Assembly (NCBI GenBank): GCA_022710645.1
Contig: JAKLGL010000001.1
Coordinates: forward strand, 407,296 to 471,295
Direction: 5' to 3'
DNA: 64,000 nucleotides
Origin: Patescibacteria group bacterium
GTDB taxonomy: Bacteria; Patescibacteriota; Patescibacteriia; Magasanikbacterales; GWA2-37-8
Below are positions 2,657-47,919 of the stretch, piece after piece. A program made the translations under genes and the position numbers. The notes below the pieces were generated by a model that searched no databases, had not been told where the DNA came from, and was given only the letters and a program-made list of their open reading frames with translations. Each line of letters opens with the position of its first letter. Position 1 is the stretch's first letter.

Positions 2657-3607
2657 ATGAAAAGCACATACGGTAAATTATTTTTGGTTATATTGGTAAC
2701 CGTAACATGTGCGCTTTTCAAAATAGAAGCTGCGTCCGCGCAGCTTTCTATTTCTATCTACCCGCTTTCCTTCAAAGCACAAGTGAATCCGGGAGATACA
2801 TGGAGGGGTAGCGTCACTGTTATCAACCCGAACGATTTTGCCATTTCCGTTCGCCCGGAAAAAGAAAATCTTGTCGGCGGTTCAGAAGGAGAAATTATTT
2901 TAACCGGAGAAACTGATCAAAATTATGGCTTAGCTTCTTGGGTAAAATATGATTCAAACAAAGAAATAATCTTGGCGGCTGGAGAAAGAAGAAAAGTGGA
3001 TTTTTCTTTGATTGTTCCCGCTAACGCTCAACCCGGCGGTCATTATGGAGCTGTTTTATTTCGCGGAACGGAAATAAATAAAAAATCTTCCGGTGAAAGC
3101 GGGCTTGGTGTAGCCGGACGCGTAGGATCAGTAATGCTTTTTGAAGTCAGCGGAGATGTTCAGAAAACCGGTGAAATAAGCTCCCTTGAAACCAAGAAAT
3201 TTATAGCTCACGGACCTATCGATTTGACTTTTAAAGTCAAAAATACCGGTAACACCTTCTTCTTACCAGAAGGTAAAGTGGAATTCAAACATTTTTTCAA
3301 AACTTTTGAAACCACTTGGGAGCCACGCGTAGTATTCCCTGGATACGATAGAACATTCAAGACAAATCTTGATAAAAAATATCTTTTTGGCCCTGTCAAA
3401 GCCACTATTTTGGCAAAAATGAGCGATGGAGCGGAGTTAACTCCGATTTCCGTAACTATTTGGGCTTGGCCTTGGAAAGAAACTTTGGTTCTACTTTGTA
3501 TTATCGTAACACTTTGGTTATTGAAACTTTGGTTGCTTAAAAACTTCAAAATTGTTAAAATAGAGAAAACGGAAAATAAAGACGAAAATAAAAAAGGAGA
3601 TGCCTAA
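2657..3607 (+). CDS. DUF916/DUF3324-like cell-surface protein with a C-terminal transmembrane anchor (CscA-like)
   Basis: It has a signal peptide, an N-terminal LSISIYPLSFKAQVNPGDTWRGSVTVINPNDFAISV beta-domain and a C-terminal TM (LVLLCIIVTLWLLKLWLLKNF) followed by a charged tail. This architecture and its position next to WxL-like genes mirror Csc/WxL loci. Confidence 0.5.
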   Translation: MKSTYGKLFLVILVTVTCALFKIEAASAQLSISIYPLSFKAQVNPGDTWRGSVTVINPNDFAISVRPEKENLVGGSEGEIILTGETDQNYGLASWVKYDSNKEIILAAGERRKVDFSLIVPANAQPGGHYGAVLFRGTEINKKSSGESGLGVAGRVGSVMLFEVSGDVQKTGEISSLETKKFIAHGPIDLTFKVKNTGNTFFLPEGKVEFKHFFKTFETTWEPRVVFPGYDRTFKTNLDKKYLFGPVKATILAKMSDGAELTPISVTIWAWPWKETLVLLCIIVTLWLLKLWLLKNFKIVKIEKTENKDENKKGDA

Positions 3608-4706
3608 ACGATTGTCAAAATCAATCTTTGTGACGCAAGCCTCGAAATATTTCCTTTTGGGGCTTGTGTTTTTATTATTGGCTTTACCAACTTTGGTTTT
3701 AGCCGCCGTAGCCACACAAAATGTCACTATCACCATCAATAACAGTTCTTATCATTGTGCTAATGGTACTCAAGATTATGACGAAACCGGTATTGACTGC
3801 GGAGGGTCTCTTTGCGGAACTTGCGGTTCGCATTGTACAAATGGAATAAAAGATTTTGATGAAGTCGGAGTTGATTGTGGAGGTTCTTTGTGTCCGACTT
3901 GTAGTGGTGGGGGCGGAGGTGGTGGAGGAGGCGGTGGCGGTTCTCTGCCGATTCTCCTTTCTACTATCAATTTTTCCGGAATTGCTTATTCAAACGCCAA
4001 AATATTTATTTTACGCGATGGAATTTTGATTAATACTTTTTTTACCTCATCATCCGGAGCTTTTCAATATTCTTTAAATTCTATTACCGCCGGAAATTAT
4101 CGCTACACTTTTTATGCGCAAGACGCTCGCGGCGGATATTCTACACATTTGGTTTTTCCTCTAACTGTTGTTGCGGGAAACTCTTACCAAGTAAACAATA
4201 TCTTGATTCCGCCAACACTGTATTTCAATTCTCAAGAAATAAAACGCGGAGAAAAAATGGAATTTTACGGTCAAAGTGCGCCGAATTCAATTTTGTTTTT
4301 TGAACTGAAAAATTCAACTTCCGGAAGTACTTCCACCTTTCAAACTATAGCCGATCCTTCAGGAAAATTTTCTTATCTTCTTGAAACTTCCGGAATGATA
4401 GAGGGTAGTTATGAAATAAAAATTAAAATAAAAATTGCAACAACTGAAAGCGCTTACAGTAATTCTTTTCCTTTTTCAATAGGTGCTAAAACCGTAGAAA
4501 AACCGATTTCAACGACAAAATGTCCGGCTAAAGGAGATCTCAACGGCGATTGCCGTGTAAATTTGGTTGATTTCTCTATCGCGGCTTACTGGTATAAACG
4601 CACCGTCGCGTCGAGTTTTATAAATACGGAAAATTCTCAACTTAATGGCGACGATATTATCAATTTGATAGATTTCAGTATTTTGGCTTATTATTGGACG
4701 GGCTGA
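3600..4706 (+). CDS. Secreted dockerin-containing protein with duplicated Cys-rich motif and a poly-Gly linker
   Basis: AAGGAG RBS, overlapping the previous stop by 8 nt. It has a signal peptide, the repeats DYDETGIDCGGSLCGTCG and DFDEVGVDCGGSLCPTCSG, and G12 (nt 3905-3945). The C-terminus has two dockerin-type Ca-binding repeats, DLNGDCRVNLVDFSIAAYWY and LNGDDIINLIDFSILAYYW (the DxNxDxxxNxxD pattern). Confidence 0.7.
   Translation: MPKRLSKSIFVTQASKYFLLGLVFLLLALPTLVLAAVATQNVTITINNSSYHCANGTQDYDETGIDCGGSLCGTCGSHCTNGIKDFDEVGVDCGGSLCPTCSGGGGGGGGGGGGSLPILLSTINFSGIAYSNAKIFILRDGILINTFFTSSSGAFQYSLNSITAGNYRYTFYAQDARGGYSTHLVFPLTVVAGNSYQVNNILIPPTLYFNSQEIKRGEKMEFYGQSAPNSILFFELKNSTSGSTSTFQTIADPSGKFSYLLETSGMIEGSYEIKIKIKIATTESAYSNSFPFSIGAKTVEKPISTTKCPAKGDLNGDCRVNLVDFSIAAYWYKRTVASSFINTENSQLNGDDIINLIDFSILAYYWTG
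3901..3948 (+). repeat. Imperfect (GGN)n simple repeat encoding poly-Gly
   Basis: ggtggtgggggcggaggtggtggaggaggcggtggcggt lies inside the dockerin protein gene. Confidence 0.8.
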
Positions 4707-7200: not shown

Positions 7201-7230
7201 AATTATTTTTAAAAATACAATTTATCAAAG

Positions 7231-7302
7231 TGCCCCCAGAGAGAATCGAACTCCCATCCTCAGGTTCGAAGCCTGATATTTTATCCATTAAACTATAGGG
7301 GC
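7231..7302 (-). tRNA. tRNA-Arg (anticodon UCG), 72 nt, no encoded CCA
   Basis: I folded it manually. The acceptor is GCCCCTA/TGGGGGC+A, the anticodon stem is TCAGG/CCTGA with loop CTTCGAA (anticodon TCG), and the T-arm is GGGAG-TTCGATT-CTCTC. Confidence 0.85.
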
Positions 7303-38598: not shown

Positions 38599-39582
38599 TT
38601 AAGGAGTTATTTTGACCGGAACAAGAGTTTTAATCGTAGTCGTATTGAATAAGCTTGGTTTAAACTCGATTTTTGTCTGTTCTTGGGCGCGGATTTTACT
38701 CACTTCTCCGACCACTTTCATTCCTTTTTCATAAGCTTCTTTTTCAAGAGGCATATTATCATCATATTTAGCCAAATTTTCCGGAGTTAACACAGTAATA
38801 ACCGGATCAAAATCCATTGTCCAAATAGCTTTTTTGATAGCTTTCCAAAAATCGGAAACAAACCCGGCGGAAGCATAATCAAAAAGTTCATTAAACCAGC
38901 GGACCGCATATTTATCTCTATTACCGGCATATTGTTCACAATGAGTTAATTCGTGAGCCATCCAGTAAACTTCTCCATCGGATAAATCAGTAATTTTATT
39001 GACCGCAGAAAAAGTTTTAACATAATCTTCGTCCCCATACATTATTTTATAACCATCGGTAATTCCAAGATGGGGAGAATTTAATTTTTTTGCCAAACGA
39101 GGCGCATACCCGTAAACCACCTTGCTTAAATCACACTTTTTTATATCGTAATACGGAGAAAAATCCTTTATTGTCTGCGCGGAAAATTTTTGCATTTTGG
39201 ATCCTTTACCTAACCAATCCATATATAAACCGAAAACTTTGGACAACAGGCCGTTCCAACCGTTCCAACTTGACCATCCGGCTAAAACCGGATTACCTTT
39301 GTTGGTGTTTACTTCGGCCAAATAAATTTTTTCCAACAATATGGAGGGTTTAAAAATTTTATCATTTATCAACTTTACAATATCTTCTTCACTGAGAACG
39401 GCAAAATTGGTAATTGGAAGTTTCAAAGAAGACGTTCTGCTAAGCGCCGTATTGTTTATACTAAATACAATATTACTTTGAACAATATCCTGTTCGTTCA
39501 TGAAAATCTGATATGTAAGATAGCCGGTGAAACCGACAACCAAAAAAAATACAAACAACAAAATTTGGGTGGAATATTTCAT
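38599..39582 (-). CDS. Membrane-anchored putative zinc metallopeptidase (HExxH)
   Basis: An N-terminal TM and WMAHELTHCEQY. Confidence 0.45.
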   Translation of the reverse strand: MKYSTQILLFVFFLVVGFTGYLTYQIFMNEQDIVQSNIVFSINNTALSRTSSLKLPITNFAVLSEEDIVKLINDKIFKPSILLEKIYLAEVNTNKGNPVLAGWSSWNGWNGLLSKVFGLYMDWLGKGSKMQKFSAQTIKDFSPYYDIKKCDLSKVVYGYAPRLAKKLNSPHLGITDGYKIMYGDEDYVKTFSAVNKITDLSDGEVYWMAHELTHCEQYAGNRDKYAVRWFNELFDYASAGFVSDFWKAIKKAIWTMDFDPVITVLTPENLAKYDDNMPLEKEAYEKGMKVVGEVSKIRAQEQTKIEFKPSLFNTTTIKTLVPVKITP

Positions 39583-42562: not shown

Positions 42563-42780
42563 ATTTTACAAAATTATTAAAAAATAAATAAAAAAACACA
42601 CTTTTGGTGTGTTAAGAGCCATTTTATAGGCGGTACCATCTTAACTTTAACTTAATTTATTAGCTGTTACGGGCTATCCCGAAAGAGTCTATTTTTCGCT
42701 AAAATAAGCGAATTTCTTTCTCCAACGCCCCAAAAAGGATCCTTGTTGATGACAAGTAATAGCGTTTTTAAGTTATTTTA
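42563..42780 (-). promoter_or_regulatory. Probable T-box riboswitch leader of ileS
   Basis: On the minus strand: AAGATGGTACCGCC (compare the T-box AGGGUGGUACCGCG; the UGGU bulge matches discriminator A). It is followed by the terminator acacac-caaaag-gtgtgt then T7, 35 nt before the ATG. An AUCA candidate specifier and a GGAGAAAGA sequence lie upstream. Confidence 0.5.
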
Positions 42781-42808
42781 ATCATACCTGTTTTCATTTT
42801 CTTTGTCA
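42781..42808 (-). promoter_or_regulatory. Sigma70-like promoter for the ileS leader
   Basis: Minus strand TTGACA, 17 nt, then TATGAT. Confidence 0.5.
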
Positions 42809-42860
42809 AACTGGCAAATGTATAAATAAAATTGCCAAAACCACTCAAATTCTATATAAT

Positions 42861-42898: not shown

Positions 42899-43336
42899 AT
42901 GTTTTACATTGCCGCCGACCACGCCGGTCACCATTTAAAAAAAGACTTGGAGCAACTTTTCAAAAACCAAAATATTGAATATGAAGACCTGGGAGCCAAA
43001 TCATATGACGAAAAAGACGATTTCGTGGATTTTGCCGTCCCTTTGGCCAAAAAAGTTGTGGAAACCGGTTCAAAAGGGGTTCTGATTTGCGGTAGCGGAC
43101 ATGGAATGTGTATGGCTGCCAATAAAATTCAGGGTGTCCGGGCAATTGTAGGATATAGCATTTCTGGAACCGAACTGGGGCGCAAACACAATGACGCCAA
43201 TATTTTATGTTTAGCCGGACGTGTTGTTACCAAAGATCATGCTTTAGCTATCATCAAAACATTTTTGAACACTGAATTTTCCGGCGAAGAAAGATTCGTT
43301 CGAAGAAATAAAAAAATCGCAGATTTAGAAAAATAA
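42899..43336 (+). CDS. rpiB: Ribose-5-phosphate isomerase B
   Basis: MFYIAADHAGHH and LICGSGHGMCMAANK. Confidence 0.85.
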   Translation: MFYIAADHAGHHLKKDLEQLFKNQNIEYEDLGAKSYDEKDDFVDFAVPLAKKVVETGSKGVLICGSGHGMCMAANKIQGVRAIVGYSISGTELGRKHNDANILCLAGRVVTKDHALAIIKTFLNTEFSGEERFVRRNKKIADLEK

Positions 43337-47459: not shown

Positions 47460-47919
47460 TATAATAAAGTGCGATTCCGGCTGCTACCGACACATTCAAA
47501 CTATTTTTCTTCCCTCTCATCGGAATTTCAACCGCTTCATCGCAATATTTCAATTGATCTTTGGTAACACCGGTTTTTTCATTTCCCAGTACCAAGGCAC
47601 AAGGAAATTTCGGTTTCCAAGAAAACATATCAACACTGGTTTTTGTTTGTTCCAGCGCTACTATATTATACCCTTTTTCTTTCAATTGTTTAAGCACTCG
47701 CCCGGTTTGTTTTATATACTCCCATTTTACAAAATTTTCCGCCCCTAAAGATACTTTCAGTAAACTTGGATGAGGTGGATATGGAGAATATCCGGTAATA
47801 TATACTTTATCTATTCCAGCACCATCGGCAGTGCGCAAAATCGCCCCGACATTATGCGCGCTACGGATATTTGGTACAATTACCACAAATTTTTCTATAT
47901 TTTTGGATATTTTCTTCAT
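47443..47919 (-). CDS. SpoU/TrmL-family RNA 2'-O-methyltransferase
   Basis: VIVPNIRSAHNVGAILRTADGAG, ALEQT and LVLGNEKTGV...VSVAAGIALY. Confidence 0.8.
   Translation of the reverse strand: MKKISKNIEKFVVIVPNIRSAHNVGAILRTADGAGIDKVYITGYSPYPPHPSLLKVSLGAENFVKWEYIKQTGRVLKQLKEKGYNIVALEQTKTSVDMFSWKPKFPCALVLGNEKTGVTKDQLKYCDEAVEIPMRGKKNSLNVSVAAGIALYYIANQI

Follow-up and report, generated by a model that had tools for sequence, protein, structure and literature searches.

The window analysed here is a 64,000-nucleotide stretch of contig JAKLGL010000001.1 from a Patescibacteria group bacterium, with a GC content of 34–39%; its minus strand carries ileS, preceded by a structured leader (Table 1). The ileS product is, as judged from its sequence, a type 2 ("eukaryote-like") isoleucyl-tRNA synthetase (IleRS), with bit scores of 838 for cytoplasmic IleRS, 775 for Priestia megaterium IleRS2 and 338 for Staphylococcus aureus IleRS1. 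The nearest IleRS loci come from Candidatus Magasanikbacteria/Patescibacteria metagenome-assembled genomes (MAGs), at 91% and 81% amino-acid identity, which places the host in the candidate phyla radiation (CPR), a lineage that the initial annotation of this DNA had raised as a condition. The leader is probably a tRNA-Ile-sensing T-box in which a decoding module of the class III type is joined to a transcription terminator.

Table 1. Features of the ileS locus, numbered by window position; minus-strand sequences are written in the direction of transcription.
Feature	Position	Strand	Description
Promoter, sigma-70 type	42809-42781	-	TTGACA (42809-42804), 17-nt spacer, TATGAT (42786-42781)
Structured leader	42771-42610	-	about 160 nt, between promoter and hairpin/U-tract
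Stem I, short, three-way junction	42766-42724	-	43 nt; from RNAalifold and covariation
Specifier	42750-42748	-	AUC (Ile), then purine A at 42747
Stem II	42723-42682	-	base helix GGAGA/UCUUU, upper helix UUCGC/GCGAA
Stem IIA/B pseudoknot	42681-42662	-	IIA hairpin CGGGAUAGCCCG at 42681-42670
F-box	42672-42667	-	CCGUAA, in IIA segment
Purine-rich linker	42661-42646	-	UAAUAAAUUAAGUUAAA; conserved AAG (RAG motif) at 42653-42651
Antiterminator (discriminator core)	42645-42611	-	GUUAAGA[UGGUACC]GCC-UAUAAAAU-GGC-UCUUAAC
T-box bulge	42638-42632	-	UGGUACC, 7 nt, between A1 and A2
Intrinsic terminator	42613-42590	-	AACACAC-CAAAA-GUGUGUU (42613-42595) + UUUUU; seven U in a row
ileS (regulated gene)	42562-39665	-	965 aa; ORF with Pfam tRNA-synt_1, Anticodon_1, DUF5915
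rpiB	42899-43336	+	RpiB-family ribose-5-phosphate isomerase; Pfam LacAB_rpiB, 143.7 bits; divergent upstream neighbour of ileS

The promoter is present as it had been annotated and agrees with the consensus at 11 of 12 positions. In relatives, a TTGAC(A/T)...TAnnAT pair, read by eye, lies upstream of Stem I at the same distance as in the window. Transcription would start near 42774, about 7 nt past TATGAT.

The element was compared with 80 related Patescibacteria (CPR) ileS loci. A T-box leader precedes ileS in 22 of these, in addition to the window; in 19 of the 80, TGGTACC lies 50–160 nt upstream of ileS (381 nt in locus L018), and the leaders can be aligned over their full length. The family alignment, composed of the window and 18 relatives, was produced by MAFFT with no structure information, and it reveals as invariant the AUC triplet, parts of AGAAAGAA and AGUAGA, the segment CGG...CCG(U)...A, the AAG trinucleotide and UGGUACC. 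RNAalifold predicts 21 pairs from this sequence-only alignment, 20 of them with compensatory changes, and independently recovers the specifier hairpin, the base of Stem II, the IIB pairing and the antiterminator helices A1 and A2. Covariation was further scored on a hand-written structure of eight helices and 35 pairs that includes the IIB pseudoknot. Cells predicted to be paired are paired in 89.3% of cases, as compared with 71.3% in shuffles and 31–46% when the partners are slid; 30 of the 35 pairs show changes on both sides, and none of 500 shuffles reaches any of these measures. The architecture is thus conserved, covarying and placed ahead of ileS.

Two covariance models were built, R1 from the 19 leaders and R2 from the other CPR leaders, that is, with the window and its two closest relatives, L001 and L002, left out; the E-values of both are rough owing to a shortened calibration, which leaves the bit scores unaffected. 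In the 64 kb of the window, R2 places its match at 42610-42771 on the minus strand with 98.4 bits (E~1.6e-23) and finds no second T-box of this kind, the runner-up at 47470-47579 (minus strand) scoring 10.5 bits (E=0.33). R1 likewise reports one site. By score, the window copy belongs to the family's top four, with 132 bits under R1 and 98 bits under R2, from which it was held out. CPR members that had no part in its training are also recovered by R1: L023 at 90.8 bits, L059 at 67.4, L070 at 64.5 and L066 at 37.1. Because the family, the covariation and the held-out models agree, we conclude that the leader element is real, conserved and under structural selection; the compensatory changes span diverged CPR lineages, which argues for purifying selection on the structure. 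The call of a T-box upstream of ileS, made initially from this one sequence, is borne out by the family in 22 of 80 loci, by covariation and by the held-out R2 score.

Several of these relatives depart from the family in detail. In L023:233-381 (Paceibacterota), the bulge reads UGGCACC in place of UGGUACC, which would match G73 over A73 or give a C·A mismatch. The apical loop of L066:2437-2644 (Moraniibacteriota) is GAUUCAA, offering AUU or UUC instead of AUC; the place of Stem III in this leader is occupied by short tandem-like repeats (gatcgtggatcgtggatc, cgatatgcgatatgcgatacgcgat) that form a long insertion, and a 243-aa open reading frame (ORF) at L066:2649-3380 lies between T-box and ileS. 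The T-box of L059 (2965-3118) is about 860 nt upstream of ileS, with an intervening 245-aa ORF (3172-3909) rich in Asp and Gly and carrying DTDGDG repeats, and that of L018 (3488-3651) is about 350 nt upstream, again with an ORF in between. In L059 and L018, the riboswitch may control a two-gene unit.

In the window leader, Stem I consists of a base helix, P1 (AACGC/GCGUU), a specifier hairpin (CUUGU-CAUCA-ACAAG) with a 5-bp stem and the 5-nt apical loop CAUCA, and a small variable hairpin, P1b (UCC-UUUUU-GGG). An AUCA specifier had been proposed at the outset; it is present, and it sits in the apical loop of the short hairpin. AUC is invariant in all 19 aligned leaders, despite the 36% GC of the genome, and the A that follows is found in 18; both the specifier hairpin and P1 show compensatory changes at every pair. 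The distal elements of Stem I, namely the IDTM (a motif of interdigitated double T-loops), the distal loop and the AG bulge, are absent from the window leader. The initial annotation had assigned about 140 nt to a potential Stem I, an assignment that is wrong, since both the covarying structure and the homology to class III leaders show a short Stem I; the remainder is Stem II, the IIA/B pseudoknot and the purine-rich linker.

Stem II follows Stem I, and IIA follows Stem II, with linkers of zero length. All ten pairs of Stem II show changes on both sides, and its internal strands (AAGAAA and AAAUAGAC; family consensus AGAAAGAA / AGUAGA) suggest S-turn geometry. The IIA portion (the CGG...CCGUAA segment) is invariant in the family alignment, and Rfam model RF00230 aligns the window copy to the IIA/F-box of T-boxes. 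The IIB pseudoknot comprises three base pairs between loop AGC and downstream GCU (42664-42662), two of them with changes on both sides. In the purine-rich linker, alignment columns A116, A120 and G121 are invariant or almost so. No Stem III helix is found between the AAG motif and A1 in the window copy, which keeps the purine flanks AAG ... AAAG. A Stem III hairpin is present in L004, L008, L016, L029, L034, L061 and L079; the form that lacks it is shared by the window, L001, L002, L005, L006 and others, amounting to roughly half of the 22 related leaders.

An S-turn in Stem II, the IIA/B pseudoknot and the F-box are general T-box features except in glycine T-boxes. The window leader has these elements, the S-turn being putative, in addition to an Ile specifier followed by a purine and a UGGNACC bulge between A1 and A2. 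In terms of class, class III T-boxes are described as having a Stem II domain, on which they depend, and a short Stem I that lacks the IDTM and shows the specifier in an apical loop of five or six nucleotides (PMC10482949). The window leader carries a 5-nt apical loop on a 5-bp hairpin within a 43-nt Stem I, with Stem II directly after it. The F-box and linker pseudoknot of the Mycobacterium tuberculosis T-box and the role of the RAG motif have been described (PMC11297988), and structures of the ileS T-boxes of Nocardia farcinica and M. tuberculosis are available (PDB 6UFM, 6UFG, as cited in PMC7583486).

No Nocardia or Mycobacterium ileS leader sequences for direct alignment were found in the papers and supplements, and high-GC, apparently actinobacterial, ileS leaders from metagenomes, obtained by a pattern scan and then an R1 search, stand in for them. 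R1, built from CPR leaders only, scores these leaders at 36–64 bits. Their Stem I (GGC...CCGG-CCAUCAC-CGGGGA-GCC) aligns column for column with the CPR model, and the specifier loops coincide. Three further metagenome T-box leaders were observed whose apical-loop specifiers are class III-like but stand for amino acids other than Ile. L137:3852-4007 (plus strand) has the loop CUGACA (GAC, Asp) and a full-overlap terminator, and an aspS-like gene comes after it; L105:1939-2140 (plus strand) has a class III-like loop, CAGACA, and a UGGC bulge; and L119:2520-2673 (minus strand), with loop UUUACGUCG, possibly GUC (Val), lies before a class I aminoacyl-tRNA synthetase (aaRS)-like gene with a PPPN motif, possibly ValRS. 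All three fall below the Rfam T-box threshold.

The T-box core AAGAUGGUACCGCC is found on the minus strand, as first annotated. It belongs to an antiterminator of canonical shape, in which A1 (GUUAAGA/UCUUAAC, 7 bp) shows changes on both sides at six of its seven pairs and A2 (GCC/GGC, 3 bp, with loop UAUAAAAU) at all three. All 19 aligned leaders carry the UGGUACC bulge unchanged. The basal pair of A2 is G-C in the window, and GC (9), AU (5) or UA (3) in the family; it is never G•U. The discriminator base of bacterial tRNA-Ile is A73, which would pair with the U of UGGU. The window holds no tRNA-Ile gene. Among the T-box-bearing loci there is one such call, a tRNA-Ile(GAU) from ARAGORN at L070:4664-4738 (plus strand), which falls within the coding sequence of ileS, has an oddly placed anticodon and is probably a false positive.

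Downstream of the antiterminator, the hairpin and U7 tract of the annotated terminator are present. Its loop is CAAAA, not caaaag as had been given, and it is not immediately adjacent to the T-box core: the A2 loop, the 3′ strand of A2 and that of A1 (42628-42611) come in between. The hairpin cannot be the terminator of another gene because the upstream neighbour, rpiB, is divergent. In L001 and L002, the terminator hairpin carries one compensatory change (ACACGC/GCGUGU). Terminator and A1 share only AAC (42613-42611), with which the terminator begins and the 3′ strand of A1 ends, and an A1–terminator overlap of 2–3 nt is also seen in L001, L002, L005, L006, L029 and L034.

These features are consistent with the following mechanism. 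The apical loop of the short Stem I would offer AUC and the adjoining purine to the GAU anticodon of tRNA-Ile, and Stem II, with its putative S-turn, and the IIA/B pseudoknot would clamp the codon–anticodon duplex, as they do in the ileS T-boxes of Nocardia and Mycobacterium. The NCCA end of uncharged tRNA would pair with UGGU of the bulge, with U matching A73, and the bound tRNA end would stack on A1 and lock all seven of its base pairs. A1 and the terminator would compete for AAC at the terminator foot; with A1 locked, only a 4-bp hairpin at a distance of 3 nt from the U-tract could form, so that polymerase would read into ileS. With charged tRNA or none, A1 would fray, the 7-bp hairpin with its U7 would form and transcription would stop at about 42590. 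That the leader is a functional tRNA-Ile-sensing T-box is very likely; for the switching model built on the three-nucleotide overlap our confidence is lower, and we lean towards it. Binding of tRNA, the direction of regulation and the sufficiency of the overlap are what we infer by analogy.

Several observations weigh against this reading, the first of which comes from Rfam. The RF00230 (T-box) model has a gathering threshold of 93 bits, and at that score it yields no T-box match anywhere in the window, where a tRNA-Arg is the only hit. When a 601-nt region was searched in E-value mode, the model aligned at 42779-42611 over model positions 1-219 with just 18.9 bits (E=0.057). The proposed check against Rfam thus failed at the gathering score and gave a full-length alignment below threshold, and our own R2 model matches. 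The other matches in E-value mode, all at E>1, can be dismissed as noise; they comprise small nucleolar RNAs, CRISPR repeats and, on the opposite strand, an azaaromatic riboswitch. The same RF00230 threshold is missed by all 14 of the related CPR leaders examined and by all five of the high-GC class III-type ileS leaders examined, whereas a canonical class I leader from the same batch as the latter, L106, scores 140 bits. The miss therefore reflects the model and not the RNA; because the class III-type leaders examined fall below threshold as well, it does not weigh against T-box membership for class III.

The extent of this alignment, across model positions 1-219, could be taken to indicate that the T-box is of the canonical class I, its Stem I being long (about 140 nt). 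The alignment, however, leaves out 40 of the 72 positions in distal Stem I, together with the whole of Stem III, and scores low, while the F-box and T-box segments align well. The covariation supports a 43-nt Stem I directly followed by Stem II, a structure that leaves no room for a long Stem I with distal-loop or AG-bulge (IDTM) elements, and we regard a class I assignment as scarcely tenable. Decay to a remnant that no longer functions, or motifs brought together by chance beside a constitutive attenuator, would account for a score below the Rfam threshold, and also for the missing Stem III and A2 G•U pair and for the single-sequence fold z-score of only -2.3, which is weak evidence alone. 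(In the minimum free energy structure, which is uninformative, the 5′ end is paired to the T-box region.) All motifs are intact, however, in a copy that ranks among the four best of its family, compensatory changes extend across diverged CPR lineages, and the Stem III-less form is common to roughly half of the related leaders; decay or chance is thus very improbable.

The second set of observations concerns the discriminator and Stem I as they are known from characterized T-boxes. The discriminator has been described as Stem III flanked by purines (5′-RRRxG-Stem III-AA-3′) together with an A2 helix whose basal pair is G•U (PMC7583486). According to the same source, Stem III is indispensable in the glyQS-type discriminators studied, and the basal G•U wobble of A2 is the main sensor of the 3′-aminoacyl group; the window copy lacks Stem III, and its basal A2 pair is Watson–Crick. 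Reviews further hold that transcriptional T-boxes generally require Stem I to be long, to bear the IDTM and to dock on the elbow of the tRNA, and that short or "ultrashort" Stem I forms are mostly translational.

The third set concerns the energetics of the switch. RNAeval assigns -9.5 kcal/mol to the antiterminator and -7.0 kcal/mol to the 7-bp terminator, and the combination of A2 with the terminator (-11.7 kcal/mol) is isoenergetic with that of A1 and A2 with a 4-bp terminator stub (-11.6 kcal/mol). In addition, the full terminator is compatible with a 4-bp A1 at -10.9 kcal/mol. Because of the 3-nt overlap, the equal energies and this coexistence, the switch is far weaker on paper than that of canonical T-boxes. 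In terms of the mutual exclusivity that the initial annotation had anticipated, a covarying antiterminator does exist, and its exclusion of the terminator is limited to 3 nt. Given the equal energies and the coexisting 4-bp A1, the competition would be limited to three pairs at the terminator foot beside the U-tract. Closure of terminator-stem pairs beside the U-tract is generally held to drive release.

The expression platforms of the relatives bear directly on this question. A hairpin with a U-tract lies 3–50 nt after A1 in all 22 CPR leaders tabulated, and three main types can be distinguished. Nine leaders have a local hairpin with a small A1 overlap, like that of the window (L017 and L018 were classified by eye). 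In five leaders (L023, L024, L061, L066 and L079), the terminator is canonical, and the 3′ strand of A1/A2 serves as its 5′ arm. In eight (L004, L008, L010, L011, L014, L016, L027 and L059), the U-proximal strand pairs just after AAG, upstream of A1, and the lowest-energy fold is one long hairpin around an intact A1, bulge and A2. The strands of this enclosing helix vary by locus (GGCCA, GCACC, GACACC, GCUAC, GUGAUA ...) yet remain complementary and are thus covarying. The platform of L070 is unlike any of the three types. Control that does not disrupt A1 appears to exist in the family, since the enclosing helix of the eight relatives leaves A1/A2 intact; speculatively, their OFF state would sequester the RAG/Stem III segment with A1 not unzipped, and the enclosing-helix terminator may be a kind of expression platform not yet described for T-boxes.

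These eight relatives, together with the equal computed energies of the two window states, lend some weight to a T-box whose readthrough depends on the purine linker and RAG motif, or on steric or stacking effects of a tRNA–discriminator complex lying right against the hairpin, and not on competition for three nucleotides; such a leader would be akin to the enclosing-helix relatives. The window hairpin is local, however, and makes no contact with the RAG region, and the 2–3-nt junction overlap recurs in the six relatives named above. We consider this alternative unlikely as an account of the window leader, for which competition at the terminator foot is preferred.

Class III T-boxes mostly regulate the initiation of translation, through sequestration of the Shine-Dalgarno (SD) sequence (PMC10482949). 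This trait is not found in the window, where a conserved terminator and U-tract stand in its place. An SD-like motif (GGAG, GAGG, AGGA or AAGG, 4–16 nt before the first ATG, start codons being approximate) precedes 2 of 37 window ORFs of at least 200 aa, which is not above the background of 6.7%, and the regions upstream of the window ORFs are A/T-rich. From these sequences, the host does not seem to use SD initiation. As the window genes are essentially devoid of SD motifs, SD sequestration would be unavailable to the host, which would in turn provide a rationale for the terminator platform.

The leader could still be a class III T-box that controls translation initiation, with the hairpin and U-tract incidental or serving as a pause site, given that its decoding module is clearly homologous to the high-GC ones and that the overlap of terminator and antiterminator is so small. 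Against this stand the sequence before ileS, where the 27 A/U-rich nt that separate the U-tract from the AUG contain no SD motif and nothing able to pair with the T-box 3′ strand, the scarcity of SD motifs among the long window ORFs, and the distribution of terminators: a hairpin with a U-tract is found in every one of the 22 CPR leaders, whereas all five high-GC leaders lack it and have, as read by eye, an SD-like purine run near the start codon. In several relatives, the ileS AUG lies just about 10 nt past the U-tract. A translational mechanism thus appears quite improbable, and transcription termination remains our preferred reading of the window platform.

Several other features of the window were noted. 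A promoter-like sequence, TTGCCA-17-TATAAT, lies at 42832-42860 on the plus strand, back-to-back with the ileS promoter and ahead of rpiB. On the other side, 83 nt 3′ of ileS and on the same strand, is a 327-aa ORF (38599-39582) with no Pfam match, which could be co-transcribed with ileS. The only window RNA above an Rfam threshold is a tRNA-Arg(TCG) at 7230-7302 on the minus strand (68.4 bits). Leader-peptide attenuation through a mini-ORF, AUG-AUU-AAA-AUA-ACU-UAA (MIKIT, with two Ile codons; 42783-42768, minus strand), was considered and rejected because its AUG is within the -10 box, ahead of where transcription is likely to start, and because it is missing in L001 and L002; the mini-ORF is probably untranscribed.

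T-boxes are textbook regulators of Gram-positive bacteria, and class III has been studied as an actinobacterial translational device. A full-text search of one literature collection returned no T-box report for CPR, Patescibacteria, Parcubacteria or Saccharibacteria, and earlier reports of leaders that join a short Stem I to a terminator, for example in Actinobacteria, may nevertheless exist. What appears new here is that a decoding module of class III is combined with a terminator platform and a reduced discriminator, and that this occurs in a new phylum. A broader proposal, on which our own judgment is evenly divided, is that CPR carry their own T-box lineage, in which a minimal class III decoding module drives transcription termination through unusual platforms, and which reflects either a shared ancient unit or a joint transfer. 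If this is true, it contradicts the view that co-transcriptional T-boxes need a long, elbow-docking Stem I for fast tRNA capture. Unusual platforms would appear to have evolved in this lineage, with a 3-nt "toe-hold" overlap and Stem III-less discriminators that lack the A2 G•U sensor, and, in relatives, a U-proximal strand that pairs with the RAG/Stem III segment around an intact A1/A2. That Actinobacteria and CPR have both this leader and a type 2 ileS in common would in that case suggest an ancient ileS2–T-box unit or its joint horizontal transfer.

The family would also be a natural case for T-box action at transcription speed with no elbow docking, Stem III or G•U sensor, and one in which the choice of platform would be linked to the use of SD initiation by the host. 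Retention of a tRNA-sensing riboswitch in tiny, regulator-poor genomes would mean that aaRS supply is still tuned to tRNA charging. As the Rfam model misses the family, the CPR leaders are probably unannotated in genomes. We expect these findings to be of moderate to good interest to specialists in riboswitches and CPR.

In comparison with class I T-boxes (RF00230), such as those of Bacillus subtilis tyrS and S. aureus ileS, the window leader lacks the long Stem I, the AG bulge and the distal loop, no K-turn was recognised in it, and its specifier is in a terminal loop in place of an internal loop. Its terminator shares 3 nt with A1, whereas the 5′ arm in class I is the whole 3′ half of A1/A2. 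With class I it has in common a putative choice between antiterminator and terminator with a U-tract, the T-box sequence with its 7-nt bulge, Stem II, the IIA/B pseudoknot, the F-box and a specifier that fits the regulated aaRS.

The closest likeness is to actinobacterial class III ileS T-boxes. Unlike these, the window leader has a hairpin and U-tract as its platform in place of an SD sequestrator, has no Stem III, has a Watson–Crick pair instead of G•U at the base of A2 and has an extra small hairpin in Stem I that results in a three-way junction; it also differs in its GC content of 36% and in its lineage, Patescibacteria (CPR). Shared with the actinobacterial elements are the short Stem I with no elbow-docking IDTM, the AUC-A specifier in an apical loop of 5–7 nt, Stem II with its S-turn strands, the compact IIA/B with an F-box (CCGUAA in the window, CGUCA in M. 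tuberculosis), the linkers of zero length that join Stem I to Stem II and Stem II to IIA, the RAG motif before the discriminator, the UGGUACC bulge and, as the regulated gene, a type 2 IleRS.

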